Shown here: positions 20,201 to 58,258 of the stretch, one piece after another
Position numbering within the stretch: position 1 is the stretch's first letter
Layout of the letters: every line of letters starts with the position of its first letter
IMG/VR virus record: IMGVR_UViG_3300037882_001611
Coordinates: 1-62,432 of that record
Reading direction: 5' to 3' (one strand)
DNA: 62,432 bases
DNA from: a virus
Taxonomy: Duplodnaviria > Caudoviricetes
The notes under the pieces: generated by a model
What the model was told of the DNA's origin: nothing
Seen by the model: only the letters and a program-made list of their open reading frames with translations
Databases searched by the model: none
Made by a program: the position numbers and the translations under genes

Positions 20201-23200
20201 CTGATCTGACCGAAGAACAACGAAAGGCTTTGACGAAGAGCCTGTTTCCTCCTCGGTTCTGGCGTACTGCTCAGCCTGCTGATGTGCTCAAAAAAGCTCT
20301 TGAGGATTGGTTAAAGCGTGGTGAGGAAGCTGCTCAAGGAATTGCTGAACGTCACGCCGTGATGGCACAAGTTCAGTCTTCTGTGGATCAGATGGCAGGT
20401 GCGTCAGCTCCACACCAAATCGAAGGCTTGATCCTTTCTGGTTCCCCGGAACAGAAAGCTGCTGCTATGGAACGTCTTCGCTATGGTGATCTTGAAGTTG
20501 AGCAGGGGGCCGAACAACGCGAGATTGATTTGCGACAAGCAAATCAATCGAGTCCGGCCCCAACTTTCAAGCAGGTAACTCCGAATTTGATGGCCGGTAT
20601 GCTGGATAAGGTTATCGGCAAGATCACGAGTGATCGTCTTACACGTGCTCTGGTGCGAGATGTTATTCGTTCAGGTCGAGTAGACGATTATCAAATCCAT
20701 ATTGGAAGTCGTGAAGAACTGCTGACCAAAGCCGTTGATCTTGGTATTCAGATCCCATCGAATCGTGCTGGGTTTGAAGGTTTCATACATCCACAATCAA
20801 AATCGATTTTTGTAGTTGATGGTAATTCTGAAACTATTCTGCACGAACTAATTCATGCAGCTACATACAGCATTCTTGAAGATTTTTATAACAAGGATGC
20901 TGTTAGTAATCTGACTCCTGATACTATGGATGCAATCCGGCGTATTGAAGGTTTGATGGATGAATTCAAAAATGCTGATCTTGAAGGAGAAGCATATCAG
21001 AATGCTTTGGACGAAATGGAACGTCAGGCTGCTTCTGGAAATCAAGCAGGTGAACTCAACGAGTTCATGGCATGGGCATTGTCGAATGCTGACCTGAGCA
21101 GCCAACTCAAGGAGACAAAGATCGATAAGGCACTTCGTATTGCCCGATCAGTGATCCAGTCTCTGAAGCATCTCCTATGGGGCCGGAAGCGTTCGGCTGC
21201 CGTCAAGGATGATATGTTCACGAACCTTCGATTCAACACGAACATCATCATGCGTAGTCAGCAAAAGGTTGCTGAGACGGCCTCGGATGGAGTGTTGTTC
21301 CATGATCCTAATTTTGGTCAGTCTTCTCGTTTGACTGATCTAATGAAGCGCTTGAAATCAAAAATCATCGATTATGTAGATACGGATCCTGTAACTCATG
21401 TGATCAATCGTCGTAAACTTACTCCCGCATTAACAAATGCTTCTCGGGTTGCTGTTGCTTTTCAGAATGCTGGTTTTAATATGACAAAACAGGAGCAGAT
21501 GGCTTTCATTCATATGATAGCCATTATGGGAACTGATGCTCAGTTAGATGCTAATAGTACTTTACGTATGCAAGAATTGTTTACGCATGTCGGAAAGCAT
21601 TTGTCTCTGGAAAGCTTTATGCGTAATCCAAATCAGAATGATCCGGCTGATATTGATCAAGCTACACAGAAATTCAATATTCTGATGGGTAAATTTGCTC
21701 CTCGAAAGGATGCTTTTGATCGCAGTGTAGTACTTCCAGCATTTATTGCTTTGGCAACGGTTAATGAAGATTTCCGAAAGATTTTATCAGAAATGGAAAT
21801 GCCGAAGACCAAGTATGCACAATGGGATTCTGTAAATAATATTCTGGATAATATTGGGGATACGTCAATAGACAATCTGTCTCGATGGGTTTCTGGTGAA
21901 GGTGTTCGTACTAAGGATGTTCAAGTTGCCCTTGATGGTTTGATGGGACAGATGCTTGATACTGCTCAGGAAAGTAGACTTTATATTGAAAAGTTTACCA
22001 ATCCTGCCGGTGATGGCATTGATCGAGTAAATCAAACAGTCATTGAAGCAATGGACTGGGTAGGTAAAAAAGCTTCTGAAAATGCTAAAAATATCCAAAC
22101 TAATAATCCAGATGCGAAGATCCGTATTGGAATAGCAAGAAGCCTTCAAACCATTACTGGATTACTGAATGAACAAAATGGTCATGCTTCAGCGGTAGAG
22201 TTGATGTCGGATGCTAATCGTACAAAAATTTGGCGTCCAATTTACGATCTATTGAAAGATTTGGTAGGACGTACTACTGAAAACGCACAAGTTTATGATC
22301 TGATTAAAATCGCTCGGACTTGGGTCAATGGCATTCGTCAGCAATACCGTGAGCAATTTCCTCGGATCGTAAACAGCAAATTCAGTCGTGAACTCACGGA
22401 TGATGAGCAGAGCCATTTATATCGTGGTTTGGGTGAAACTGATTTTGCTTCACTGATGCGAGGAAATAATATTGAGCGTGTGCTTGAATTGATAAGCGAC
22501 CAAGCTGCTCGTGATGTTGAGATTCGAAATCAAATCTCTAAGATTGAAGGACTGTCGCCAGAGAACGCAAAACGTATTGAAAGCAAAGCACGCCAGCTTG
22601 CAAAATATATGGTCTCGAAGAAGAATGATCACGGGAACCTGCTTCGTAATGCTGAAGCTATTGCTCATCTTCTAAATGAGAATGGTGTGAAAGGTACTGT
22701 GACCAGTCAGGCAATGATTGATGCGATTGATCATCTTGTATCAGTTCTAGCATTCAATGAATTGAGTGATGCCTCGAAGATTTCACTTTCTTCTTTGGTT
22801 CAAAGCGAAGCCAAGGGTCTGACGTTCATCATGTCCTATCTTCAGGGACAGGATGAAATCGACCGTGCCAAGGCAACAGGGAATGCTCGGTTCAATCACT
22901 TCAAGGGATACATGCCCTCTGAGGCTGCACAGGGCGTGAGCCTGTTGGTTTCGCATGAGAGTCGTGCTGCTGGATTGCTGGAGAAGAGTTACACCCGTCT
23001 GCGGGCTTTCAGCGGTTCATCAAAGGATCCTACGGCTGGAAAACGCGATTATTATTTTGCTCCTGTATCTGGTCGTGCTCGTTTCTCTCAAGGCATTATG
23101 CAAAATGTTCAGCAGACAGTTTCTGGTGTAGATAAAGCTACAGGGTTTTCTATTGGCTTAACAGGAGGTCTTATTACTGATCCATTGTTGGTGGCTAAGA

Positions 23201-24621
23201 TCACAGCAGATCGAACCAAGGAAACTGGATTAGCTTTGATGCCTCTCTTTGATGAAAACGGGAATCTATTTGCATATGAACGAAGCATTGACCCTGCGAT
23301 GTTGGATTGGCTCCAGCTCAAAACGAACATGTCTCAGGCTATGGGCATTCGTTCAGGTCGTCAGGTTGAAGAAGCTTTGTCGCATGAGTTGAACAAGACA
23401 CTCATCAACCGTCTCCGGGATATGTGGAATAAAGATAAGCTCATTCGTTCGAGTGAATATATCAATCTCTTCAAGAGCAATGATCCAATTCATAAAGATG
23501 CTGTGAAGATTTTCTCGAATGAGACAATGGAATATATCCGAGCACGGTTTCCTGAAGGTTTCTACGTGCGAAAAGATATGATTGATGATGCGATTGGTTA
23601 TCGGTCTGCGTCTATTGGTGATGTTTGGACTGGTAATTCACGTTGGTCTCCTGCCACTCAGGAGCAGGTGAAGAAAATTTTGATGGGAATGTTTGGAAAC
23701 AAAGCATATCAATATGCAGTGCGAGCCGAATCGCTTCTCCAAAATGTCATACAGGATCTTCGAGTTGCTATTGTCATCAAGAGCATTATAGTTCCAATGG
23801 CAAATGCTGCGAGCAACATATATCAGCTCATTGGACGTGGTGTGCCCGTTGTTCAGATCTTCCGAAGCATTCCAAAGAAGACTTCTGAAATTGAAGCATG
23901 GCATAAGAGCCGGATCCGTCAGATCGAAGCAGAAGCTGAATTGATGGCGACGACTGACATTTTGGAACGGCGTCGTCTTGAAGCTGAAATTCAGACGATC
24001 AAAGACAGCCACAAGCGTCTATCAATTTGGCCATTGCTTCAAGCTGGTGAGTTCAGTTCGATCTCTGATGCTGGTTCGCGAGACGATATCCTACTGTCAG
24101 AAGGAAAGCTCAGCGAATATCTGGAACGTGCGGTCAACAAGTTGCCGAAGTCAATCCAGACGGCTGGCAAATATGCCATCATCTCGAAGGATACGGCACT
24201 GTTTCGTGCTCTTCAAAAAAGTGTCGAGTATGGCGACTTTGTTGCCAAGAGCATCTTTTATGATGATCTCGTTAAACGTCAGGGAAAAACGAAGGAAGAA
24301 GCACTTGGTCGAGTGACTGAAGAATTTGTGAATTATGATCGTCTTCCGGGACGTGATAGAGCATATCTTGAAAGCATCGGTCTTCTTTGGTTCTACAACT
24401 TTAAGATTCGTTCATCAAAGGTTGCAGTAAGTATGATTCGGAACAATCCGGTTCATAGTCTTATTTCAATGAGTTTACCACTTCCCATCAATGGAATTGG
24501 TACATCTCTCGAAGATAATCTTTGGGTTTCATTGTTTGATGGTCGTGCGTCTAACTCTATGGGATTTGGAATGGCATTCCGAGCACCGGGTCTTCTGCCG
24601 CTTAATAATTTGCTTTGGTAA
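14278..24621 (+). CDS. Virion-encapsidated RNA polymerase (N4 gp50-like)
   Basis: 3447 aa; FEADGVTNG (motif A), RGAVKNPLTITIYG (motif B), QIFDG (motif C); hallmark of N4-like phages. Confidence 0.97.
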   Translation: MATNYQDILNQYLAANPITNPDIFGTPVPKVQQVEEATNQKRREAYALSSMAADGSGYRSASQRDRDYVMMTPYQFQAKYGEEVARNLQADVSNMDAARRGDIQGRRDGITTLGDTINSAGMGFVNSLGGIAAFGLGLVNDDAGVWTSRKLGDLNEFTQSFQSDQLNAARRSYGVQQELDTRDNAANYEQNRKRFGDTVANLWRVGADVVNSVGNSFDTPMLAQDTIASGVGSLFAGGPIAKGLKVIGSAAVKGATIARPSLLLSETAGKAVSIGSKAAMPAAIGLMEGGGAYQQTAEAAYEQLRTREDLTEDQKIEMANNAALKAAAIQIPIGVATGSLVSRFEASPLRVPTVRGAASNMLKETVEEGVQSGSGQLAQNVALSQEVNPEQDLLQGVGEQIGLGALGGAGSAGVVQAPGVALRASVETAKLPFRAAGAALSYAGDRIKARNQRVQDDVLVGLHDEATIAAPDAQIEADQIIGASDAPEEVKATARNFVAQTIERLSNSTAIQEVAKRVTNVKTDIRERLGALSELSPMVHESEATQNQETPEVLQGSLIQSIKDVVANTVQSESVQKAKEQGIKLYEKYAPIINDEMKAALKKFDAHLAKHGNEVASNLPSIEVTVNDVQSELNKSTQLIVGMAEQTPEQVDPDVADRILYHSENGGINLTAPQKVTLRSASATARAVQKGSELASKYGLVNAAEVSRQVLTSAPKEDSNLSLYGHLEEIRMAYNSGDLDLATQRFADLRSFAQSQSNKVAAFNQALIGGNTSSHRPVVYDAHVGEGKFRPTSTSRVNLSPTSANSIKIAQQVAVEAVTLANAVNNLSDAFPDLGIEHIAVPLLDVSLNGEATTVAQEYRTGKRKVSVNTTDSVQTGLEPVIDVNNVENIGAEVMKEQGGQSSEFDEAGASISDPGQVVSEQTEQTEVEPDSAKMQQSEEISEPKQTEEIASSEQNQKEGADAPKEQAPEVVQEKPAINTDEQEAQTVEKMYPALLGSKMNRLWRSFKIPKIKSTRTFAVESPITIVRDGLKNETTFRQLIDGDLNRKFTSEIAKAYEQYLQIGDALLETLDNRLQAFLNKSATKKAGIDNAITWLNGQAVNIVDQNEDGSYSYNQKLIENAVLASLQWYLKMNQYGGNLDEKDVRSLLRLPIGSVLPEGLVDDINNAGMGPAEMSRSLSREIQRFWGLETDSSQPRNFSEGVPEGVAKEILVAMLDVGLLKLNEVDISSVTTNENIDHLNRYQMNTVDADGKTKVIPADHPIRQFPTAIEKAVLTESEEIHYLGQLPPAPSKTQLRNDAVENTPEQLRSLEKQQAVEHRLNMPFIEMIQQMGEVMVLRLFGGGDIENTPLNQNHKKTLAGQNLTLQSAYLSIMSLVAEAQNKADLDGIDIGDLAIHFAYNDTVVNRAQMLGKDNPQSNKLMREAILPTWKILDLTNGSVRDQFFMGLAQALGVKVHTQSREQTMSDLQKKLDGFTETLSIMTDTSQLKFTPEIIDTMKSEGVNSVAGLHALMEYARYQASEDKSAFRTSIYFEADGVTNGVINAMALFSSGPFTSEWLENIARGGYNVGEEPLSLAQIRTRFSKAAADLYGLAGTKTTEYIKMLREKYRDQKEITAQFNAIRDLLTEFLSDGIGVNENNDLIVDRGAVKNPLTITIYGAGAEGIAGNIVDELVSRIYERMSLTAQRIAEDPDLTEAQAFYGGDVQTAEIKFKQLMSNLNAIVANRLVMNDGELVVENIIKGSAKTFGDPKAFTFPKVGIDTIRQNMLHAFVEPMIDGITDTVGADLMNNLTIIKTQIQSWSLIGKFAYQAAYNEAILEKRKANPEMSKNELLSRREEQTIMKKVWKQLPFFSTGSQNFLFGMKQAMDVRTEFARGFNDELNTPAFGYTPDDAGVAGIPGITIGTGDGQTVLNAIADSDMPEGFIQIFDGIHSSVLDMETMGRVANKAVFDAWQNNPLDDLSKAFGSFVDQVDLSDLTEEQRKALTKSLFPPRFWRTAQPADVLKKALEDWLKRGEEAAQGIAERHAVMAQVQSSVDQMAGASAPHQIEGLILSGSPEQKAAAMERLRYGDLEVEQGAEQREIDLRQANQSSPAPTFKQVTPNLMAGMLDKVIGKITSDRLTRALVRDVIRSGRVDDYQIHIGSREELLTKAVDLGIQIPSNRAGFEGFIHPQSKSIFVVDGNSETILHELIHAATYSILEDFYNKDAVSNLTPDTMDAIRRIEGLMDEFKNADLEGEAYQNALDEMERQAASGNQAGELNEFMAWALSNADLSSQLKETKIDKALRIARSVIQSLKHLLWGRKRSAAVKDDMFTNLRFNTNIIMRSQQKVAETASDGVLFHDPNFGQSSRLTDLMKRLKSKIIDYVDTDPVTHVINRRKLTPALTNASRVAVAFQNAGFNMTKQEQMAFIHMIAIMGTDAQLDANSTLRMQELFTHVGKHLSLESFMRNPNQNDPADIDQATQKFNILMGKFAPRKDAFDRSVVLPAFIALATVNEDFRKILSEMEMPKTKYAQWDSVNNILDNIGDTSIDNLSRWVSGEGVRTKDVQVALDGLMGQMLDTAQESRLYIEKFTNPAGDGIDRVNQTVIEAMDWVGKKASENAKNIQTNNPDAKIRIGIARSLQTITGLLNEQNGHASAVELMSDANRTKIWRPIYDLLKDLVGRTTENAQVYDLIKIARTWVNGIRQQYREQFPRIVNSKFSRELTDDEQSHLYRGLGETDFASLMRGNNIERVLELISDQAARDVEIRNQISKIEGLSPENAKRIESKARQLAKYMVSKKNDHGNLLRNAEAIAHLLNENGVKGTVTSQAMIDAIDHLVSVLAFNELSDASKISLSSLVQSEAKGLTFIMSYLQGQDEIDRAKATGNARFNHFKGYMPSEAAQGVSLLVSHESRAAGLLEKSYTRLRAFSGSSKDPTAGKRDYYFAPVSGRARFSQGIMQNVQQTVSGVDKATGFSIGLTGGLITDPLLVAKITADRTKETGLALMPLFDENGNLFAYERSIDPAMLDWLQLKTNMSQAMGIRSGRQVEEALSHELNKTLINRLRDMWNKDKLIRSSEYINLFKSNDPIHKDAVKIFSNETMEYIRARFPEGFYVRKDMIDDAIGYRSASIGDVWTGNSRWSPATQEQVKKILMGMFGNKAYQYAVRAESLLQNVIQDLRVAIVIKSIIVPMANAASNIYQLIGRGVPVVQIFRSIPKKTSEIEAWHKSRIRQIEAEAELMATTDILERRRLEAEIQTIKDSHKRLSIWPLLQAGEFSSISDAGSRDDILLSEGKLSEYLERAVNKLPKSIQTAGKYAIISKDTALFRALQKSVEYGDFVAKSIFYDDLVKRQGKTKEEALGRVTEEFVNYDRLPGRDRAYLESIGLLWFYNFKIRSSKVAVSMIRNNPVHSLISMSLPLPINGIGTSLEDNLWVSLFDGRASNSMGFGMAFRAPGLLPLNNLLW

Positions 24622-47769: not shown

Positions 47770-48828
47770 TTAACTCAGATAGCGGTTGAGGTCTCTTAGT
47801 GCGGTTGCGAATGCGGGATGGATGCGAAGTTGAGGCTTCTGAACCATTACGGATCGGAAAAAGAGCACTTTGAAATCAAGGCTGAAACGGCCAGCATAGG
47901 TAGACAGATCACCGAAGTTCTTTTCGTCAACCATTTCACACATATGTGTGATGTTCGCCCATGATTCTGCTGGATCGTTAGGAATCCGACAGCTAATAGG
48001 ATCATCAGTAATTTCCTTAATGGAAATCAAGTTTTCGAAAACACGAGTAAACTGAATGAAATCTACAGCAACACCAGAAGTGATTTTGCCAGCATATTTA
48101 TGTGTTTGTCGAGGGTCGATACCCTTACTGCTTGGTTCCCGTGTTTTGAGGAGTTTGTTGACAAATTCCCATGTACGAGGACAGCAGAAAGTTTTCTCAT
48201 TGTGATCTGGACGGAAATCCATCAGTTTGCTTGGATAGCGGCTGAGATACGCAATGATACGTCGATCCCAGTTATTTTTCAAAGCAACATCTTCCATCCA
48301 TTCTTTGAAGTTGACCTCCAAGACATAGTGGGAAAGACGACTTTGCATAGCAGTGCCAATAGGATTGGTAATTGCTCGGTCAGTGGCTAGATTACCTGCA
48401 CCACCAATGACCACATTAGGATGAAGGTTTCGTTGACCAGTTTTTCGATCCAGAACGAGTTTATAAGCGGATGCTTGTACTGCTTTGAGAGCTGCATTGA
48501 ATTCATCTAAGAAAAGCAACCAACCTTGTTTACCCTTAGGTAGTTCATCTCCCTCCAAAGGGAAGAGATCGCCAAATGGTACGAACATTGCCCGTTTGGT
48601 AACAGGATCAATCATTGGGAGACCTGACAGATCTTCGGGAGCTGAAGTACTAAGACGATGGTCAATCAATTCAAGATTTAATTTTTCAGCAACCTGAGCA
48701 AAAATGCTCGATTTACCAATACCGGGGGATCCTTCTACGTAAGGAACAACACCGGAATAGAAATCATCTTCGATTGCTTCTGCGAGTTGCCGAGGTGTTA
48801 CACGGTAGATGTTGTTGATGTCGTCCAT
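47770..48828 (-). CDS. MoxR-like AAA+ ATPase (N4 gp24-like)
   Basis: GSPGIGKS, LFLDEFN, AGN, CPRTWE; paired with the VWA gene. Confidence 0.88.
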   Translation of the reverse strand: MDDINNIYRVTPRQLAEAIEDDFYSGVVPYVEGSPGIGKSSIFAQVAEKLNLELIDHRLSTSAPEDLSGLPMIDPVTKRAMFVPFGDLFPLEGDELPKGKQGWLLFLDEFNAALKAVQASAYKLVLDRKTGQRNLHPNVVIGGAGNLATDRAITNPIGTAMQSRLSHYVLEVNFKEWMEDVALKNNWDRRIIAYLSRYPSKLMDFRPDHNEKTFCCPRTWEFVNKLLKTREPSSKGIDPRQTHKYAGKITSGVAVDFIQFTRVFENLISIKEITDDPISCRIPNDPAESWANITHMCEMVDEKNFGDLSTYAGRFSLDFKVLFFRSVMVQKPQLRIHPAFATALRDLNRYLS

Positions 48829-49256
48829 TATCTTTCGATATCCTGTTCTGTACGAGGCGGAATATACGCTTCGTAGGGGTTGTTTTCGGTACAAAGGTGG
48901 CCGATTGGTGTCATTATGAAATCACCATCTTCGTGACCCACCAAAGCAAGTACGGAACGGGGTTCCATTGTCTTGGCATCAAGACATGCCATAAGAGCTA
49001 GATCGCCTGCACCGGCGGCTTTCTGCAATTGATGAAACCACTGCTTATGGTGATCAGGAAGTTTACCGTGTTGGTCGGGAAGACCAATGGTTTCAATGGG
49101 CTTATTCAAAACTTCATTGAGACGACACCAAAGACCATTACTGAGTTCGATGATTGTGTTTCCATTTTTATCCTTGGTTCCTCGCATGATGAGATCGTTG
49201 CTAATTGCAGTTAGGAGATCCAGAAGATCTCGATTTTCTTTTCGAAGATTACTCAT
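48828..49256 (-). CDS. Hypothetical protein
   Basis: ORF with overlapping start/stop junctions. Confidence 0.55.
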   Translation of the reverse strand: MSNLRKENRDLLDLLTAISNDLIMRGTKDKNGNTIIELSNGLWCRLNEVLNKPIETIGLPDQHGKLPDHHKQWFHQLQKAAGAGDLALMACLDAKTMEPRSVLALVGHEDGDFIMTPIGHLCTENNPYEAYIPPRTEQDIER

Positions 49257-49495
49257 AATGAGGTTCCTTGATAGATAACATCGAATTTACCATCATTCCA
49301 AAAGCAAAGGATGACTTGACCACGTTTTTTTGTGACAGGATTATAACTGGTCGTAAATGGACGAATATTTTTATAATCTTCGTCTTTACGGAGTTCTTTG
49401 AGAGCTGCATTTAGTTCATCAACAGCTTGTGTGGTCCGTTCATATGGAGTGAGTTTAGGTTTCGGTTTCTTAAAGAAACGTGAGAAAATAGACAT
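49253..49495 (-). CDS. Hypothetical protein
   Basis: GAGGAG SD. Confidence 0.55.
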   Translation of the reverse strand: MSIFSRFFKKPKPKLTPYERTTQAVDELNAALKELRKDEDYKNIRPFTTSYNPVTKKRGQVILCFWNDGKFDVIYQGTSL

Positions 49496-49575
49496 TATTG
49501 AACTCCTCGATTAAAATAAAAAACCCGGAGAACCTAAGTCCTCCGGGCATTTTTGATTTGAAAGATAGACTGATT

Positions 49576-49989
49576 TTAGTCCAGCTCTTCGAGTTGCTTG
49601 AGAATGTCTTCCTTGGACATCGAAGCGAGTTCAGTGTTTTCACGGTTTTCCAAAGCTTCAAGCAGTTTGGCACGACGAGCACGCTTCTCACGCTTGGCGA
49701 GAGCAACAGCGTTCTGTTCCTGACGGAAGTCGATTACCAACTTCACCACGTTAAGCATTTCGTTCAAGCCGTTTTGCTGAGCAGTGTCACCACGATTGAC
49801 GAAGCTTTCTTCTCCCAGAGACTTGAGAGCACTGTTGACCGATTTGGCCACAGCATCAAGGCTGAAGCCGTTTGTTGCCGTCAAAGGCATTCCAAACAGA
49901 TCCTCAGTGGTGATGAGACCACGAGCAGAGGGGAATCGCATTGCCGTGGACAAAGCGATAAGCAGAAGGTTTTTTTCAGACATGTTCAT
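49576..49989 (-). CDS. Conserved phage coiled-coil protein (partner of the upstream 661-aa protein)
   Basis: RFPSARGLITTEDLFGMPL...LDAVAK...EESFV pattern. Confidence 0.7.
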   Translation of the reverse strand: MNMSEKNLLLIALSTAMRFPSARGLITTEDLFGMPLTATNGFSLDAVAKSVNSALKSLGEESFVNRGDTAQQNGLNEMLNVVKLVIDFRQEQNAVALAKREKRARRAKLLEALENRENTELASMSKEDILKQLEELD

Positions 49990-49992
49990 TCC

Positions 49993-51978
49993 TTAGAACT
50001 GAAGGTTATAGGCACGGCGATCACCGGACCCGGAAGTGACAATGACAACACAAGTATCGTCACGAGTCGAAGAGAAGCCCAGACCAGACAGACTGTCTGG
50101 GATAGGTTCACACTTGGTTTTGGAACCAAGCACCTCAAACACCTTGCGATGTTCGTTGAGGTCCGAACGGAGAAATTCGTTATAAATTCCCCGAGTTGGT
50201 TCTGGGTTATTACACCCAGAAAGTATAAAGAACCAGTGTTTATTGCCCTTACCAATCTGTCCATCCCAATGATTTGGAGACAACATGAGCGTATCGACCG
50301 GAACGAAAGTTTCTGTCTTGATGCCCCATTTATCTTTTGAACCAGTGGAAGAAACCAGTTTCTTGTTGACCACCAAATTCTTGAGTTGGCCAGCGAACAT
50401 TTCGAATTGAAAGACTTCATGTTGTTCTTTGGATTTCATTTCGAAAGCATAAGTATAGATCTTGCTTTCACCATTAGCCCAAAGTTCGAGAGTGAAACCC
50501 GGATCACGGGTATGACGCTTCGAGAACTGATGGATTGAAACAGCATACTTACCGTCACGAGGACGTTTCCAGCTCAGATTTTCGACGGGATCGACTTTGT
50601 TATGGTGATTAAGGCTGTTTGTATCAACATCGAGAATGCTCTTCGTATTATGATAATAAATATGTCCTTCGGGGCATTGAGCGTGCATGTCAAGGTCATC
50701 ACCATTGTACCATGCAAGTGAAACTCGCAACGGCACTTCGGTGTTACCACCTGCACGCTTGACCTTTTCCTTGATGGAGTCGGTGACTTCACCATCATAG
50801 GACCATGCAAATTGGTTATCCCATTGGAACAACCGAGCAGGATCATCTGAACCAGTGAGACTGACAAAGTTGTTGAGATGGCGATTTTGGACCATGAGAT
50901 CCATTGCTGTAGCAGTCGGCAGCACATCCTTGAGGAAGTCTTCGATTTTGATGGTTTGAGCGTCTTTGTATGACGGTAAGGGTTTGGTGGCCATGGCTGG
51001 AGCCAGAATCTCCATCAAACCACTGTCTTTCATCTGTGATTTTTTGGTTCGATTGGCCCAGAGAACATTATTGATGCTGACATCAGAGATTCGAGCAAAC
51101 CGACGATGTACAGCAGCTTCGAGACCAAGGCTCTTCAACTTATCGACAGCTTGTTCAGCCATTTTGGGCGTGATGAGAGCAGAGGTTCGCTTGTAGTTTT
51201 CGGGGGCTACCTTTGATTCGAACATTTTGACGGCATCTTCCAGATCTACACCTGTAGACAGGTCAGTTAGAAGAGTACCAATAACAGTATTGCGGAAACG
51301 AGCTTTCGGATCACTGACGTTAGCCCAGATGAAAGCATCACGATCTGAAGCTTCATTATACTGCTTCTGGATCTTTTGGAATGCCTTGACTGAGGCAAGA
51401 TGTTCTTTACCACGATAGATAGATTTGCTCTCAATGAGATCAATCACCGTTTCGAAGGATGCGGGAGTCAGTTCTTCCAGACCACGTTTGAAAACATGAA
51501 CGGTAGTGTTCAGATCACCACGATCCTTATCGGGAGTTGTACTGAAATGCTTGTCAGCAACTCGACCGTAGAAGTGATGCCACATGATAATTTCATGGTT
51601 GTCGGCATTGCTTTCGTGGCTGTATTGGCGTTCCTTGGTTCGGAATACACTGATAATGGGAGCCTGACGAACCAATGCCTGCATTGTACGTGCAACAGTA
51701 GCATAGGGTTCAGGTAGGTCAACCAAGTTATCCCAGACGGTGAGGCGAAGATGGGTGATCGGATCAATGCCCACGAGCAAACCGAGGCGTCGGATAAACG
51801 ACTTACAGCAGTTGCAGTCATGGACCGTTCGTTCACGAAAAATAGGATCAGTGCCTTCAGGGAAAGCAGCTAGATAACTGGCGAAGATGTCTTCGACATC
51901 AACGACGAACAGTTCATGCTTCTGCATGGCTGCATATTGGGCATGAACTGCCTTTGAAAAGATTTGAAATTCACTCAT
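49993..51978 (-). CDS. Large conserved phage protein with HDCNCC motif and YfaP/DUF2135-like domain
   Basis: YLAAFPEG...HDCNCCKSFIR; LRVSLAWYNGDDLDMH...LDVD...PVEN; start MSEFQ at 51978 follows GGAG. Confidence 0.65.
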   Translation of the reverse strand: MSEFQIFSKAVHAQYAAMQKHELFVVDVEDIFASYLAAFPEGTDPIFRERTVHDCNCCKSFIRRLGLLVGIDPITHLRLTVWDNLVDLPEPYATVARTMQALVRQAPIISVFRTKERQYSHESNADNHEIIMWHHFYGRVADKHFSTTPDKDRGDLNTTVHVFKRGLEELTPASFETVIDLIESKSIYRGKEHLASVKAFQKIQKQYNEASDRDAFIWANVSDPKARFRNTVIGTLLTDLSTGVDLEDAVKMFESKVAPENYKRTSALITPKMAEQAVDKLKSLGLEAAVHRRFARISDVSINNVLWANRTKKSQMKDSGLMEILAPAMATKPLPSYKDAQTIKIEDFLKDVLPTATAMDLMVQNRHLNNFVSLTGSDDPARLFQWDNQFAWSYDGEVTDSIKEKVKRAGGNTEVPLRVSLAWYNGDDLDMHAQCPEGHIYYHNTKSILDVDTNSLNHHNKVDPVENLSWKRPRDGKYAVSIHQFSKRHTRDPGFTLELWANGESKIYTYAFEMKSKEQHEVFQFEMFAGQLKNLVVNKKLVSSTGSKDKWGIKTETFVPVDTLMLSPNHWDGQIGKGNKHWFFILSGCNNPEPTRGIYNEFLRSDLNEHRKVFEVLGSKTKCEPIPDSLSGLGFSSTRDDTCVVIVTSGSGDRRAYNLQF

Positions 51979-52028
51979 TGTTGTTCTCCGGGTTTGGACC
52001 GATAATGGTTTGAAAAAACAAACCAAAT

Positions 52029-52063
52029 AAAAAATCCCACGCCAAATGAATGACGTGGGATTT
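52029..52063 (-). terminator. Intrinsic terminator ending the ncRNA/tmRNA transcript
   Basis: AAATCCCACGTCA / TGGCGTGGGATTT stem followed by TTTATTT on the - strand. Confidence 0.75.
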
Positions 52064-52400
52064 CTTCTAACAATTCTGTTGCAAGGCTGTTAGAAGCCCC
52101 TATCTGCTACCTATTAGGCAGCAAGACGAAGTGCCATTACTGGCGAATTGTCGTTGGCATTTGTTGCTAACTATCCCGTCACGGTGGGCCATTCCGGATC
52201 GCGTTCAATTTCAGTCTTTCGGATCGAGACTATTTCACCCCCATCAACTGCCCTGTGGGCTCGCCCGTCGAGCCCGGACATGCACTCAGAGAGGCACTTC
52301 CTGCTTTGGCGATCATTCCCACAGGACAGATGGTGGAGGTGGCGGGTACCGCCCCCGCGTCTCCGATTGTCTTACGTTGATCGAATTACGATCATATCCT
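52064..52400 (-). ncRNA. ssrA: tmRNA, circularly permuted two-piece (alphaproteobacterial type); tag ANDNSPVMALRLAA
   Basis: Acceptor piece ends GAC-GCGGG-GGCGGTA-CCCGC-CACCTCC-ACCA (CCA end at 52331); 88-nt intervening segment; coding piece starts GGGGGTGAAATAG at 52242 and pairs with CACCTCC, giving G3-U70; tag frame 52158-52117 followed by TAA TAG. Outer ends are approximate. Confidence 0.93.
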
Positions 52401-52419
52401 GAAGAATAATGCCCCCTAG

Positions 52420-53798
52420 AGCTTTAGGCAAGAGGGGTGATAACGGTGCATCATTCTTCTGAATTTGCAAACTCGGATGGCCTGCTGGTATATTGCTACA
52501 TTGAAAGCACAGGGACCAGCAGGGCGCACCAAAGATGAACCCGCAAGCATTGGAGTGTTTCAGATCCCATAAATGGGGTACGTTTCTCTTCCAATGCAGG
52601 CTTCGTCATTCCTAAATATCGTTGTATTCAGTAACTAATTTAACGAGTTGAGTCTGATAACTCAATACAGCTAGTCAATGCTGTATCCCCTGTTCGGATG
52701 CCTATTCAGGCAAATTTCGTGCTTTAGAGTTTATTATATTGGACTATCCAAAGCTGACCAATGTGCTTGCTTCGATGTCTCTAGCCACAATGTAGCTTCG
52801 TTTCTTTCGATGCCACGGAGATACGTGGGTTGTTTGGATCCGAGGGAACCAACCTCGCTAAGCCACCCTTAGGGCCGATCTACGTCTTAGGCCGCTCTCG
52901 TTAGTAATGATAGCTCCCCTGTGACCGAGCCGTCCTCAATTGCAGAACTTAATCTACGGAGAGGATGCATTGGGATCGAACCAATACCATCACCAATTCA
53001 AAAGGTGTTCGGGTACATGGACTCTAGGTTACACCCGTATGACCGTCAATTCTCGTTCCACTTGAGGTTTTGTCAGTGCCCGCCTGACTACACAATGCCG
53101 CTTAACGTCCATCTATTCACAGAATAGTGTTAGGACGACGGGAGCATGAATAACTCTGGTTCACGGAGCTTCTAATTGAGAGCACAACTTTCAATTTCGA
53201 TGCTAATTTCCTAACCAGTCTCCGTGTTCCCCAATCGGTACACTATGAGCAGTTTCCAACCGTTTCGATCTTCCTTGTCCTCCGGTCATGACTCCGGACG
53301 ATTAGAAGACACTGGTTGAACTCTTATTTCCGTTTCCACCCACGGTGCTGAGAGCGTATCATCAGACCCGGTGGATCTAGGCTTATCCAAAGTACCAGAG
53401 CCATGGTGGCGCCTATCTGGTTCATCCCAGCAACGGTCTGAATGGTCCTAACAATCATTCAGACTTTTTCTTGGTTTTAGAACATCGCAAAAAACCAATA
53501 TTCTCATCTTAGAAGGCCGGACCACCGCTTCGTTGCGACTTCTCGTGTTCGGCATGATCAAGAACCAAATTTCGACCTGCTACTATTAGGTGTTTAGGTC
53601 TATCAGCCTTCAAAAATGAGAGTGACCGTCATCGTTGGGAGCTACCCAATCACATCTGCCCAGTCAAGCCACCTGAATGTTTAATAAGATCTTTGAGGCC
53701 CATTCAGACTGAAGGTTTGAAGCCTCAAGAAATCACGCTATTCCTGCTGTGTACTTTAGCAGTTTTTTATCTATTGCAATAGATAAACATCTAAGCGT
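52420..53798 (-). ncRNA. Unassigned large structured non-coding region (one large or several smaller RNAs)
   Basis: No - strand ORF of 60 aa or more over ~1.4 kb in an otherwise densely coding genome; many stems; flanked by a hammerhead and tmRNA. Confidence 0.6.
52962..53037 (-). other. Degenerate tRNA-like element
   Basis: Perfect T-arm ATTGG-TTCGATC-CCAAT preceded by a 5-nt spacer and a 17-nt anticodon-like arm; D-arm and CCA not evident. Confidence 0.35.
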
Positions 53799-53844
53799 GG
53801 GTATGACCATTTGGTTTCGTCTCATAAAGACTCATCAGATACCC
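53799..53844 (-). ncRNA. Hammerhead ribozyme, type I
   Basis: - strand GGGTAT CTGATGA GTCT-TTATG-AGAC GAAA CC-AAAT-GG TC ATACCC: stem I, CUGAUGA, stem II, GAAA, short stem III, GUC cleavage triplet. Confidence 0.88.
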
Positions 53845-53910
53845 TGTATTTTTAGTTTGCCGCCCTGACTCTGGGGGATTGAGCCAGAGCGACAAACCAA
53901 AAAACCAGAC

Positions 53911-54417
53911 TTATTCAGTCACTGCCAGTTCAGCGGTTGGTACAGCGGTTGGTTCAACCAATGGTGCTGCTTGGGTCTGAACTCCAGATTCTGTAATCGT
54001 GGAAGCATTGGAAACAGTGTCCTTGGCTTTGACGCCAAGACCGATCTGTTTTGCCAATGCAGCACGAGTGCTAGAATAGTTGGGAGCCGTCATCGGATAA
54101 TCAGCGGGAAGATTCCACTTGGTGCGATACTGATCCGGCGTCATGCCATAATGCGTCATCAGATGGCGCTTGAGCATCTTCAGTTTCTTGCCGTCTTCAA
54201 GGCAGACAATATAGTCAGGCTTGACCGAGGAACGGATCGAAACTGCTGGTTCCTGAGCAACGACTTCAGGTTCGGGAGCCTTCTGCGTGTTGTTCAAGGC
54301 ATCATAAGTGCTCTGGATGAGGCTTGACAGTTCATCGGCACGGATGGTGGTGTTCGATACAAAAGCCGAGACGATACCTGTGGTCATTTGCAGAATTTTG
54401 AGTTCAATGTCATTCAT
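53911..54417 (-). CDS. mucR: MucR/Ros family zinc-finger transcriptional regulator
   Basis: IVSAFVSN, PAVSIRSSVKPDYIVCLEDGKKLKMLKRHL...YRTKWNLPADYPMTAPNYS...LAKQIGLG; ATG at 54417 follows AGGAG. Confidence 0.94.
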   Translation of the reverse strand: MNDIELKILQMTTGIVSAFVSNTTIRADELSSLIQSTYDALNNTQKAPEPEVVAQEPAVSIRSSVKPDYIVCLEDGKKLKMLKRHLMTHYGMTPDQYRTKWNLPADYPMTAPNYSSTRAALAKQIGLGVKAKDTVSNASTITESGVQTQAAPLVEPTAVPTAELAVTE

Positions 54418-54447
54418 TTCATTTCTCCTGTGTGAGCAAATACTCAC

Positions 54448-54479
54448 AAAAAAATGGCTACCCCGAGAAGGGTAGCCAT
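54448..54479 (-). terminator. Intrinsic terminator upstream of mucR
   Basis: ATGGCTACCC / GGGTAGCCAT stem plus T7 tract on the - strand. Confidence 0.75.
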
Positions 54480-54553
54480 GTCAAGATATATTGGAAGAAA
54501 AAATTGCTTATGCGGTACAGGTGATTGCTACCGTATCCGTTTTGGCACCTTCT

Positions 54554-54880
54554 TCAGATGCTGACATTGTTTTTCACCATATCCCAAGTGATCGTAACAC
54601 GATCAATGTCAGTGATGTTGTTCGGGAACATAGCGGTCAATGCTGGATTAGCAGCAGACCGTTTGTAAAGAATGTCACGAACATGGTGAAAAAGAGCATG
54701 ATTTTCACCGAAAGAAGTTTCGGTGGAATTGTCACCAAGATCATCCTGTGAAACATCGTGATAGAAATCACCGATATTCACGTATGCCTGACCACCTTCA
54801 TTGGCGGGCAGAACATCGCCGTAAGGTTGTACTTGAGCGTGTTTGGTATTCTTATGATATGCGACTTGATAACGAGCCAT
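54554..54880 (-). CDS. Hypothetical protein
   Basis: 108-aa ORF; NHALFHHVRDILY. Confidence 0.6.
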   Translation of the reverse strand: MARYQVAYHKNTKHAQVQPYGDVLPANEGGQAYVNIGDFYHDVSQDDLGDNSTETSFGENHALFHHVRDILYKRSAANPALTAMFPNNITDIDRVTITWDMVKNNVSI

Positions 54881-54965
54881 AGCTTTTACCTATCTATTCT
54901 TGCAAGGAAAGGTGCCCTTTCCTTTGTTGGTTCGGGAACCAAGGAAAAAGACACCTCTTCTTACA

Positions 54966-55325
54966 TCAACAGATCGGGTCTGACCAGAGTGGCATGAAGC
55001 CTTGTTGTTTGAGCCAAGATCCTACAGGACCAAAGCCGAAATGAGCCAGTCCAAGCTCTACCAAACGCCAAAGAGGTCGATTACGCGGCATTTGACGATA
55101 GCTCATGAGATGGACTTGATAGCCCTTTTCAAATAGCAGCAGAGCTTCTCGAATTTGAGCTTTGGTAAGCTTTTCTTCAGATTTTATTATAGTGTCTGTT
55201 GATCTCCATCCACGAGTATACGCCCGGAATAATACAATGCCCCAATGATTGGGGCACTGCATATCCCAGTCAAATTCTCGGTGTTTTTTACCTAAACGAA
55301 ACGCTGCTTTAGGAGAGGGCATAGT
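54966..55325 (-). CDS. Hypothetical protein
   Basis: ORF overlapping the RNAP2 stop; start uncertain (MPSPK region). Confidence 0.4.
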   Translation of the reverse strand, partial: TMPSPKAAFRLGKKHREFDWDMQCPNHWGIVLFRAYTRGWRSTDTIIKSEEKLTKAQIREALLLFEKGYQVHLMSYRQMPRNRPLWRLVELGLAHFGFGPVGSWLKQQGFMPLWSDPIC

Positions 55326-56514
55326 CTGCGCTCCCGATGCTTTGCCATAGGTATGGGTCAAGTTTACCAACTGTCACAGTTCGCCCAACGAGTTGGGAGA
55401 TCAAATGGCTCAGCATTTCGCTTTTAGCAATAAGCATGAGTTGACGGGTGTACTGTTCCCTGAGATCATTGCCGTAGTTAGGATGGCAACGGAAGCAATC
55501 ATGAATACTGATCACCTTGAATGGCTTCTCGGGGAGACTCTCAAGCAACTCCCAGATGGTGGAGACATCGACATGTCCCAAATTATCCGTGTTGAGATGC
55601 TGAAGGATACGGGCAGAGAGATACCCGCTGTTTTGGTAGTGGTTCCAGAGAGTAACAACGAGCTTATCGTCGTTGCTTTTGGTTTCGTGTCCGTACAGAC
55701 TGTTGTCTCCAGAAAATAGGTCATAAAGATAGTTGACCTTTTGTACGTCATAGTCGCAGCGGCGAGTCATTTCTCTAACGATCATCCCATCGATGCTGTG
55801 AATAGTATTTGCACCGAGTGAACGGCCTTGCTTCATTGGTTGATTGATCCGATGATAGTAGTCGAAAGGCTGATTGAGAAAGTTCACAGTTTCTTTTATG
55901 GAGTCCATGACTTTAATTTTAACATGGAAATTGTCGGGCAATATCCAGTCATGGGAATCTGTATTAGGATCCCAGAGAAGCAGCATAGTTTCGTTGAGTT
56001 CCCATGCTCCGGGAGCATTAGTGATCATTGTGTTGTAGAACAGATCCAAGAGAGCACCTTCACCGAAGATGCGTTTGGGTTGAGCCTTGCTGCTATAGAG
56101 AGCTGTCATGATCGCGTCTTTGCAATCATCACGGCTGATTTTGGCAGTTTCTCCCAGTTGGTTCAACATGATCTGATAGATCTTGGTATAGGCATCTTCA
56201 CGTTTGCCTGTGGAGACCACATTGCAAAGTTCGGCTGCCAGACGATCTCCCGTCAGAGCAGCCAAGAGCTGCAAGCCACTGGAGGTGGCATCGAGTGAGA
56301 TCATATAACCAGTGGGTTGTCCTGCTACAGCAGCATTGTAAGCTATACAGCCTGCATAGAAGAGAGCAGGTTCTTTAGCTTGGTGGATTAGTTCAGCGAT
56401 GCTGTTCTGATGTTGATCGAACCATTGGATGCGTTCATCCCAGTTCAGTTTGTCAAGGCCGAAGCTATTAGCGATATCGATCTTGATATATTCGAGTGAA
56501 GTGAATTTCTGCAT
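55309..56514 (-). CDS. RNA polymerase II subunit 2 (N4 gp16-like)
   Basis: YIKIDIANSFGLDK, LDATSSGLQLL (motif A), RDDCKDAIMTALY (motif B), IHDCF (motif C); start MQKFT at 56514 follows GGAG. Confidence 0.92.
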   Translation of the reverse strand: MQKFTSLEYIKIDIANSFGLDKLNWDERIQWFDQHQNSIAELIHQAKEPALFYAGCIAYNAAVAGQPTGYMISLDATSSGLQLLAALTGDRLAAELCNVVSTGKREDAYTKIYQIMLNQLGETAKISRDDCKDAIMTALYSSKAQPKRIFGEGALLDLFYNTMITNAPGAWELNETMLLLWDPNTDSHDWILPDNFHVKIKVMDSIKETVNFLNQPFDYYHRINQPMKQGRSLGANTIHSIDGMIVREMTRRCDYDVQKVNYLYDLFSGDNSLYGHETKSNDDKLVVTLWNHYQNSGYLSARILQHLNTDNLGHVDVSTIWELLESLPEKPFKVISIHDCFRCHPNYGNDLREQYTRQLMLIAKSEMLSHLISQLVGRTVTVGKLDPYLWQSIGSADYALS

Positions 56515-56848
56515 TTCTAATCTCCTGCATATGGCATGATTGCCGCGTCTTGGGGATTTATTCTGGATCACCTTCTTCAAGAGTTTTGAGAATATTTTCC
56601 GCTTCAGTACGAATATCGTGCATAATCGGAACAACATCTCTTGATTGATCTTCAGATAAAAAGATGATTCTATTCGCAATTTCAGCGATTATCTCTTCCA
56701 TTGTAGTCATTCTTGATCCTTCCAGAGGTTGATGTGGTCACCATACACTTTGTGCCAGTAACGCCACTTGAGCATAGTGATCCAAGCCCAAGAGAGTTTC
56801 CCTTGGGCTTGGTTCTGCTTCCGCATATACTTGCGAAGTCTATGTTGA

Positions 56849-57367
56849 TTAGACGACAAGTTCAGGTTCAGCCAACTTACGCTTCTCGTTCCACCGAGGG
56901 CGACGATTGTTGGCTTGTTCTTTGCGGGTAGCCCAGCGACAGTTTCCGGGTTCATAATTCCCGTCATTGTCGATACGTTCGATGGTCAACTTGTCTGTCC
57001 AGCCATTAGCAAGAGACCAGTCCTTGAAGGTCTGAAAGTCGTGCCATTCAGGGCAGACCTTAATGCCTCGATCAACGTAGGCATCTCGATCTTTACGAGT
57101 CGTATTAGGATTGCACCTTGCCATCATGTTTGACCATGAATTGAAGATGGGTGTTCTTGATGCACCATGAGTAGTGTTCACTTCAATGGCGTAACAGCCA
57201 CATGAAGTGGACTTTCCTTGCTTGAGGTTTTGCCAGAGAACGAGGGTCTCCTTGCCGCAGTCACAACGGCATTTTACACGCCGTTTGGCTCCTAGCTTGG
57301 AGACCTCTTCGATCAGGGTGAGTCGGCTCATTTTCGATCCGAGCGAGATCACATCAGCTTTCGGCAT
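56849..57367 (-). CDS. Free-standing HNH-type homing endonuclease
   Basis: [58 protein letters not shown]. Confidence 0.85.
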
Positions 57368-57370
57368 GGG

Positions 57371-58258
57371 TTATTCCATAGAGACTATTTCTTCATCCGC
57401 AAGCTGTATCACTGCCTTGTTCCAAGGAGCACCTTGATAGTTGACGTGATAACCTTGGCAGTACACACGTCCACGCTTGTCGTATTTGTGGGTGAGATGG
57501 AACTCATTTCCATGATCGACGAGCTTCGCTATCACTTCGTGACAACTACGATCATATTTTTCAAATGCACGTTTCCGGCGTTCGAAATCGTCTTTGGTTT
57601 CACCTTCTTTCGGTTTGTCCAAATTACGCCAAGAGTTGGCGATCATATTGGCCGTATCGATATTGATGGTGAAACGAACATTGTTCATATGATTGATGTG
57701 GTCTAGACATACATCATCATCATGATGGTTCTTTTTGAGAATGATTGATCCTCGGTTGAGCACATATCCAGTATCTCGGTTGCACTTTACCTTTCTGGGT
57801 CGGACAACCATAGGGAGAGGGAATTGGTAAAGATCCAATTCACGTTGGATATCTTCTGGAATCGTGAGAACAGGTTCTACAATGAGCTGTGAATAGGCAG
57901 GGTGCCAATGGAGCAAGTCCACTTCACAGCATTTCAGAATGGCATCTGCTACGTCCTGAACGTCATTATAATGATGACGTAGGATACCTACCATAGTTGG
58001 TAGAGTAGTTCGTTTATGGAGAGCCATTTGAACCAGAAGGGAGAAACCGAACGCGGGATCAATGCTGTTTAGTTTCATGAACTTGGTTAGGTCAAGTCCA
58101 GTGCGTTCTTTGAGTTCTACCTCGAAGTAGTTGTACAAACGAGGAAGAAGTTGGTTTTTGGAATAAAGCTTTTCAAGCTGAATCTGTGTCTGCATGTTGG
58201 CGTCTTGCACAGTAGTTCTCCTTAGAGTTGTTCGGTGATATGAGTTACACGGAAGCAT
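57371..58258 (-). CDS. RNA polymerase II subunit 1 (N4 gp15-like)
   Basis: LEKLYSKNQ, YQFPLPMV, LTHKYDKRGRVYCQGYHVNYQG; true start probably 30-60 nt downstream of the ORF-track start. Confidence 0.92.
   Translation of the reverse strand: MLPCNSYHRTTLRRTTVQDANMQTQIQLEKLYSKNQLLPRLYNYFEVELKERTGLDLTKFMKLNSIDPAFGFSLLVQMALHKRTTLPTMVGILRHHYNDVQDVADAILKCCEVDLLHWHPAYSQLIVEPVLTIPEDIQRELDLYQFPLPMVVRPRKVKCNRDTGYVLNRGSIILKKNHHDDDVCLDHINHMNNVRFTINIDTANMIANSWRNLDKPKEGETKDDFERRKRAFEKYDRSCHEVIAKLVDHGNEFHLTHKYDKRGRVYCQGYHVNYQGAPWNKAVIQLADEEIVSME

Follow-up and report, generated by a model that had tools for sequence, protein, structure and literature searches.

An alphaproteobacterial-type two-piece tmRNA gene carried by an N4-like phage

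The circularly permuted, two-piece transfer-messenger RNA (tmRNA) of Alphaproteobacteria, known as the Caulobacter type, was reportedly described by Keiler, Shapiro and Williams in 2000, and two-piece tmRNAs are by now known from phages too. Here we describe such a gene (ssrA) in a DNA of 62,432 bases, referred to below as the window, which is the whole of the linear IMG/VR virus record IMGVR_UViG_3300037882_001611 (CheckV completeness about 84%). The gene is real and, as far as our searches reach, it is the first tmRNA found in an N4-like phage.

The accessible text of Buchholz et al. (2022, PMC9004378) counts 402 tmRNA carriers among 18,146 phage genomes and 133 unique forms, 53 of which are two-piece by ARAGORN. 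The permuted tmRNAs in Table S1 of that paper belong to phages of Caulobacter, Sphingobium, Roseobacter, Ruegeria, Phaeobacter, Mesorhizobium and Pelagibacter, all of 130-322 kb, and the carriers named are phiCbK-like phages, Lacusarx, DSS3_MAL1, DSS3P8, Ruegeria V10, Phaeobacter MD18, Mesorhizobium Cp1R7A-A1, the pelagimyophages Mosig and HTVC008M, and the OM43 phage Melnitz (PMC9004378; PMC5648845). The 17 'podophage' rows of the same table (PMC9004378) comprise 3 Cellulophaga and 14 crAss-like phages and no N4-like phage. According to the available parts of the respective descriptions, Lacusarx has its one tmRNA beside 24 tRNA genes, and the Caulobacter phages Senya and Shash have 38 and 33 tRNA genes. 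Mycobacteriophages of the Bxz1 group and Bacillus phage G likewise carry tmRNAs that depend on host SmpB, but these are one-piece, unpermuted molecules in phages of other host phyla (PMC4131195, accessible sections), and only one-piece phage tmRNAs are listed in the accessible part of Hudson et al. (2014).

Full-text literature searches, with subscription papers and later databases outside their reach, returned no report of a tmRNA in an N4-like phage or in Schitoviridae; in the available portions of papers on N4-like phages, some state that ARAGORN found no tmRNA, and others merely name the program as a method. An earlier note on this DNA, made from the sequence alone, had called a two-piece tmRNA gene in an N4-like phage unusual. 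The N4-like setting indeed looks new, whereas the two-piece form as such does not, given the 53 unique forms called by ARAGORN in published phages.

On the minus strand of the window, the Rfam model of alphaproteobacterial tmRNA (RF01849, alpha_tmRNA) matches positions 52065-52447 over its full length (model positions 1-355) with 106.2 bits (cut-off 50, E 5e-28), and the model of permuted tmRNA (RF04321, tmRNA_permuted) matches 52114-52393 with 99.8 bits (cut-off 47). Scores this far above the cut-offs indicate tmRNA features far beyond chance and establish the locus as an alphaproteobacterial-type circularly permuted tmRNA gene with a tag of its own, as the earlier note had proposed when it recommended the first of these models as a check. 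Only the extent of the gene had been underestimated: it exceeds the segment then marked (52064..52400), reaching about 52447 on its 5' side and followed on its 3' side by a terminator at 52066-52029.

The individual parts were found as they had been read. The CCA-ending acceptor half (end at 52331, T-loop GGCGGUA) lies upstream of the half that starts with G1 (52242), with 88 nt between them. The acceptor stem GGGGGUG/CACCUCC is paired at 7 of 7 positions, including G3-U70, and continues into the discriminator A and CCA (ACCA). Helices joining the two pieces are formed by UCGGA/UCCGA and GAUCG/CGAUC, to which we add UCAA/UUGA, and the tag frame, running from GCC to GCC (52158-52117), reads ANDNSPVMALRLAA, 14 residues followed by UAA and UAG. 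In gene order, GGCRGUA T-loop, G3-U70, ANDN...AA tag and inter-piece helices, the gene thus equals the Caulobacter-type tmRNA described by RF01849; unlike the bacterial molecule, it is phage-encoded and has no counterpart to some model positions 3' of the tag.

The permuted tmRNAs published from alphaproteobacterial phages are the same kind of gene in a virus and likewise need no phage SmpB. Their carriers, however, are sipho- or myophages of 130-322 kb, whereas the present record is that of a 62-kb N4-like podophage in which ARAGORN and Rfam find no tRNA gene. Unlike in Melnitz and Mosig, neither a glutamine riboswitch nor any other Rfam family was detected upstream of the tmRNA up to E=1, and the two tmRNA models are the only Rfam families to reach their cut-offs in the whole window. 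The coordinates of the gene and its surroundings are collected in Table 1.

Table 1. Parts of the tmRNA gene and of the region that holds it, in positions of the window.
Feature	Positions	Strand	Details
Whole permuted tmRNA gene	52065..52447	-	Span of the RF01849 match
5' part of the acceptor piece	52362..52393	-	GAUCG (52389-52393), UCAA (52377-52380) and UCGGA (52362-52366), pairing with the coding piece
T-arm	52342..52358	-	Stem GCGGG/CCCGC, 5 of 5 pairs; loop GGCGGUA (52347-52353); aligned to the T-arm of the model
Acceptor 3' strand CACCUCC (52335-52341), discriminator A and encoded CCA	52331..52341	-	Predicted 3' end of the acceptor piece at 52331
Intervening segment, 88 nt, predicted to be cut out	52243..52330	-	Single long closing hairpin; GUUGAU before G1
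Beginning of the coding piece: G1 with acceptor 5' strand GGGGGUG	52236..52242	-	Predicted RNase P site 5' of 52242
Strands of the coding piece pairing with the acceptor piece	52197..52223	-	UCCGA (52219-52223), UUGA (52205-52208) and CGAUC (52197-52201)
Candidate pseudoknot 1 (CGG..CCC..CCG..GGG), 5' of the tag	52175..52196	-	Stem of the model and a second stem found by eye
Tag reading frame	52111..52158	-	Resume codon GCC (52158-52156), ANDNSPVMALRLAA, stops UAA (52116-52114) and UAG (52113-52111)
Intrinsic terminator-like hairpin and U-run directly after the tmRNA	52029..52066	-	16-pair stem, then TTTTTT
Accessory island between the RNAP2 and ATPase genes, holding the tmRNA	48895..55308	-	RNAP2 directly followed by the ATPase homologue in relative L011

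Comparison with related genes provides further evidence for the structure. The intervening segment folds with a minimum free energy of -43.6 kcal/mol (z -4.36), and 0 of 200 shuffled sequences were as stable. The equivalent segments of four related tmRNAs measure 80-111 nt, as judged from flanking motifs, and each has a predicted closing hairpin of its own that differs from the others; (G)UUGAU or UUUGAU precedes G1 in all of these relatives except the bacterial copy. Next to the tRNA-like domain, the junction helix is UCGGA/UCCGA in the window, GGCUG/CAGUC in a bacterial gene (L047), GCGCA/UGCGC in a viral one (L160) and GUUCUG/UGGAAC in another (L009), so that across these four tmRNAs, the window and three relatives, the sequence changes and complementarity is kept. 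Here the helices of each sequence were scored on their own; in a MAFFT alignment, junction helices from different subfamilies did not line up with each other. In a set of 18 alphaproteobacterial-type tmRNAs, positions 5 and 6 of the acceptor stem covary and G3-U70 is invariant; the stem is paired at 7 of 7 positions in 17 of them, the remaining one showing 5 of 7, with its G1 probably misplaced by the search pattern. Pseudoknot 1 is a candidate, its model stem aligning with one non-standard pair and its second stem, CCC/GGG, being recognised by eye only, and minimum-energy cofolds were noisy. As a separate observation, the spacers of two related tmRNAs, L160 (contig G232) and L315 (DSS3_MAL1), hold a T-arm-like hairpin (GCCGGUUCGAUUCCGGC and GCGGUUCGAAACCGU), as if a tRNA fragment were nested there.

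The carrier is an N4-like (Schitoviridae) phage, as the earlier note had supposed. An open reading frame (ORF) of 3447 amino acids at 14278-24621 encodes the giant virion RNA polymerase (phrog_2206, 2455.9 bits), and the N4-type set of the record further includes the two subunits of RNA polymerase II, RNAP1 (phrog_2166, 57371-58258) and RNAP2 (phrog_2051, 55309-56679), together with rIIA/rIIB, DNA polymerase, primase and portal genes. By RNAP2, the nearest cultured relatives are Schitoviridae of Sinorhizobium and Rhizobium, headed by phage ort11 (59% identity) and followed by RHph/RHEph phages. The hosts of these relatives, and a gene of the Ros/MucR family close to the tmRNA, fit an alphaproteobacterial host. 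Neither an SmpB gene, whose absence the earlier note had also remarked on, nor a tyrosine or serine recombinase (integrase) was found in the record; as the record is incomplete, both absences apply to its 62 kb only.

RNAP2 and the ATPase gene (47770-48894) between which the tmRNA lies adjoin each other in the closest complete relative (L011, RNAP2 62% identical), and other relatives have different fillings at this place. By this comparison, the roughly 6.4 kb from 48.9 to 55.3 kb are a variable, lineage-specific accessory island. The tmRNA shares its strand with the phage genes next to it in the island, namely the Ros/MucR-family gene at 53911-54447 and, at 49993-52026, a gene for a protein of 677 amino acids. 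A chimeric, host-derived assembly, named in the earlier note as an outcome that would overturn its proposal, is not borne out: the tmRNA is phage DNA, because contigs from other runs bridge both of its edges. One contig (run X1, record 2) covers 51864-52248 with 7 differences, and two more cover 52413-52563 with 1 difference (run X3, record 16) and 52325-52556 with 20 (run X4, record 27). In another contig of run X1, with about 91% similarity to the window, 52044 is joined to 52469, with or without other sequence in between, and the 424 bases with the tmRNA (52045-52468) are skipped. Among the sequencing runs listed as containing this DNA there is no RNA run, and the DNA runs contain it with small shares only. 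If this X1 reading is right, close relatives would exist with and without the tmRNA cassette.

As to the origin of the gene, the tmRNA region had no blastn match at E 1e-5 among 50,697 phage records, and a degenerate pattern of the resume context plus ANDNSPV gave 0 hits in viral contigs. The 26-nt core of T-arm and acceptor recurred without change in one further viral contig and five species genomes, four of them gammaproteobacterial metagenome-assembled genomes (MAGs) with beta-type permuted tmRNAs and one with an alpha-type gene. With a core identical to that of bacterial tmRNAs, the phage RNA should be recognised by host factors. The alpha-type gene (L047; contig C228:1859-2253 of MAG G031, labelled Sphingomonas) is the nearest relative found, with 67% identity over 260 nt. 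It has in common with the window not only the core but also the segments AUGAUCGUAAUUCG and AUUGAACGCGAUCCG, an intervening segment of 89 nt and the similar 14-residue tag ANDNSPVTALKLAA. Unlike the window's gene, it is chromosomal, flanked by genes for a GGDEF-EAL protein, a permease, GroEL and a GMC oxidoreductase. The suggestion of the earlier note that the divergent middle of the tag (SPVM) might be a phage adaptation did not hold up, since this bacterial ssrA encodes ANDNSPVTALKLAA; the tag, including its 'SPV' middle, is therefore not a phage invention.

Over 15 tag codons, the window and G031 have 7 identical codons, 6 synonymous ones and 2 replacements (M/T and R/K), with the differences distributed 1/2/7 over the three codon positions, while overall the two RNAs are identical at 181 of 306 positions (59%). 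Judged from these codons, the tag differences are the signature of a translated frame.

The bacterial gene is itself atypical. It is the only alpha tmRNA found in G031; one of four genomes of the genus matches beyond the core, and among 201 sampled genomes of the family, 26 of which match, G031 alone does so. The other 25, all sphingomonads, have 11-residue tags of the ANDNEALALAA type and intervening segments of 25-53 nt, against 14 residues and about 88-91 nt for the window by the same motif-based measurement. The GroEL of contig C228 is only 82% identical to those of the genus, among them another copy that G031 itself has, and possible explanations are a paralogue, a mis-binned contig, a foreign segment or a replacement of the resident ssrA.

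Two viral contigs complete the picture: G001, a fragment of a T4-like myophage, with an alpha-type permuted tmRNA encoding the tag ANDNDVAFALAA, and G232, a small tailed phage, with one encoding ANDNYISANAVAA. Both resemble the window in that the core is the same or nearly so, the intervening segment is long and closed by a hairpin, and G1 is preceded by (G)UUGAU; they differ from it in their tags and in unrelated backbones, the only shared protein being one weak match in G232 (27% identity, 101 amino acids). Scans of viral contigs and metagenomes with exact 15-mers returned 226 loci, a single one of which (L160) has a related tmRNA, the rest being chance matches. One might imagine from these relatives a 'phage-type' lineage of alpha two-piece tmRNAs, marked by the long hairpin-closed intervening segments and by shared AUGAUCGUAA.UCG and AUUGAACGCGAUCCG segments, which would move as a cassette not only between the unrelated N4-like podophage, T4-like myophage and small tailed phage but also into bacteria, replacing the resident ssrA in at least one genome (G031). 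Phages would then be the source rather than the borrower, and the cassette together with Ros/MucR would be a host-takeover module gained and lost as a unit by a tRNA-less 70-kb phage. We consider this scenario speculative and, as a whole, doubtful.

We favour a simpler reading, to which we attach a moderately high probability, namely that the window holds a working alphaproteobacterial-type two-piece tmRNA gene, acquired horizontally by an N4-like phage of an alphaproteobacterial host into a variable island. A single precursor would be transcribed from the minus strand and end at the terminator (52066-52029). Host tRNA-processing enzymes would then remove the 88-nt hairpin between CCA (52331) and G1 (52242), with RNase P cutting at G1 and 3' trimming producing the CCA end, and the acceptor and coding pieces would be held together by the 7-bp acceptor stem and the three short helices. 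Host alanyl-tRNA synthetase could charge the molecule via G3-U70. As no smpB was found in the record, host SmpB would be needed for the phage tmRNA to enter ribosomes stalled on broken mRNAs, where translation would resume at GCC (52158) and the addition of ANDNSPVMALRLAA would mark the product for host proteases. During infection, more stalled ribosomes might in this way be rescued and remain free to make phage proteins. The earlier note had suggested two conceivable roles, rescue that continues when defence nucleases cleave host RNAs and a changed recognition of the tag by adaptors.

Several results weigh against a working gene that is maintained for the benefit of the phage. The ARAGORN check that the earlier note had proposed came out divided, as the program reports nothing in the window at default settings and, at a 90% threshold, a permuted tmRNA with exactly the tag ANDNSPVMALRLAA; at default settings it does detect the related L009 gene. 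Taken alone, the junction helix of the window is marginal against shuffled sequences (p=0.056), no significant terminal helix emerged from a search (p 0.2-0.95), and the Rfam alignment contains several non-standard pairs in distal helices, an unformed 5' hairpin and missing model positions 3' of the tag. In the whole records of 29 N4-like relatives, RF01849, RF04321 and RF00023 gave 0 matches above cut-off, with 4, 9 and 12 sub-threshold matches, respectively, and RF04321 gave neither kind in 5 cultured N4-like rhizobiophages. The same model gave none in 2 Naomviridae either, and its controls scored 118.7 bits in DSS3_MAL1 and 71.4 bits in phiCbK, the latter with one additional sub-threshold match (27.2 bits). 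No other IMG/VR contig was found to carry the tag family of the window, and the related variant, about 91% alike, that appears to lack the tmRNA implies that the tmRNA is dispensable. Finally, the selection signature in the tag could have arisen in a bacterial lineage before transfer, the comparison being compatible with selection in either lineage.

The main rival to the favoured reading is a dispensable passenger, that is, an ssrA copy of host or phage origin that was recently picked up, is still intact, brings the phage no benefit and is heading for loss. Such a passenger would be expected to look much as the gene does in being a singleton among the relatives searched, in being skipped so exactly (52045-52468) by a related variant, in adjoining 1.46 kb of non-coding DNA and in scoring below the default threshold of ARAGORN. 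We nevertheless regard it as rather unlikely, as the defining elements tested are all intact, pseudoknot 1 aside, and the gene has its own terminator. At 59% identity to the nearest cellular copy, it is no fresh capture from any sampled donor and yet is undecayed, and at least two other runs have contigs with near-identical copies of it.

Alternatively, the RNA could serve to modulate host trans-translation, either by competing with host tmRNA for SmpB and ribosomes, which would place the phage tag on stalled products or blunt host tagging, or by acting with Ros/MucR in host takeover. A counteracting role for a phage tmRNA is proposed in the accessible text of the Lacusarx authors, and that of Hudson et al. 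cites a phage form consisting of the tRNA-like domain only that inhibits tmRNA. The tag of the window is three residues longer than those of the 25 sphingomonad genomes, and the Ros/MucR gene lies 1.5 kb upstream. The window's RNA, however, is full-length rather than a tRNA-like domain alone, and its tag keeps the ANDN start and the LAA end and is nearly that of a bacterial ssrA, bearing no mark of a non-degradable or phage-specific tag, so that we judge this role improbable. Least probable by far, and largely refuted, is an artefact or a relic of integration, in which host DNA was mis-assembled onto the phage or an attP-type copy of ssrA served for integration. The record is a metagenome assembly, and tmRNA genes are common integration sites (PMC4383910, accessible part). 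Both junctions, however, are bridged by contigs from other runs, host genes do not flank the tmRNA, and the gene is complete rather than an end fragment. N4-like phages are known as lytic, and no tyrosine or serine recombinase was found in the record.

The surroundings of the favoured gene deserve some remarks of their own. The gene at 49993-52026 (minus strand) encodes a protein of 677 amino acids that is a member of phrog_1735 (747 bits) without any Pfam match. Its homologues occur in 557 records of diverse phages, among them N4-like phages, phages of Ackermannviridae size, phiCbK-like phages and a cyanophage. The idea that this gene travels with the tmRNA was rejected, as the annotations of phiCbK and DSS3_MAL1 show no tmRNA less than 6 kb from the homologue and a model scan places their tmRNAs far away. 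The Ros/MucR-family regulator gene (53911-54447, minus strand; PF05443, 165.5 bits) has no PHROG match. Its family is typical of Alphaproteobacteria, and bacterial mucR-like contigs pile up on 54022-54272 in 4 of 4 runs compared. Between this gene and the tmRNA, directly upstream of the latter, lie 1.46 kb (52450-53910) with no ORF longer than 68 amino acids and with dense stops in all six frames (3.5-6%). Comparisons of the stretch with the closest relatives, the sequences flanking other tmRNA loci, the remainder of the window and, by blastn, the 50,697 phage records revealed no similarity; it is kept at about 90% identity in the related X1 variants. Its distal half (53181-53910, minus strand) folds with a z of -6.4 (0 of 20 shuffles) into many long hairpins, one of which has a stem of about 23 bp immediately behind the MucR stop codon, and its proximal half has a z of -1.9. 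Elsewhere in the record, a gene for an HNH endonuclease (phrog_374, 186 bits; 56849-57367, minus strand) lies between those of RNAP1 and RNAP2; tblastn found no homologue at the corresponding place in five relatives.

A further observation concerns four of the N4-like relatives (G005, G006, G013 and G009; loci L040-L043), which at about positions 1440-2010 of each locus have sub-threshold matches of 21-36 bits to tmRNA models. The element there has a conserved tmRNA-style resume context and a tag frame reading ANDNVVLMAA or ANDDVVLMAA, followed by stops and preceded by a 16-bp hairpin. A tRNA-like end with ACCA lies 290-450 nt downstream, its acceptor stem covarying (UCCGGUG/CGCCGGA versus UCCAGG/CCUGGA) and lacking G3-U70, in an order that is neither standard nor alpha-permuted. 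The block recurs in 391 phage records, including those of N4-like coliphages and Klebsiella phages, in which it is annotated as nothing, as a hypothetical protein or as an odd tRNA.

The finding is of moderate interest, chiefly for the apparent natural variants with and without the gene and for its being missed by the standard tool. ARAGORN, on which almost every phage paper relies for tmRNA, overlooks the gene of the window at default settings, and since this program is also the basis of published reports of N4-like phages without a tmRNA, this is a practical warning. What a phage gains from a tmRNA of its own is a question for which we found no paper testing it, and the natural variant that seemingly lacks exactly this cassette offers a ready comparison. 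For phages, the gene shows that the carriage of a private ribosome-rescue RNA is not limited to large genomes: the catalogued entries from alphaproteobacterial phages are all of 130-322 kb, whereas here it occurs in a mid-sized, lytic N4-like podophage that has no tRNA gene in its record.

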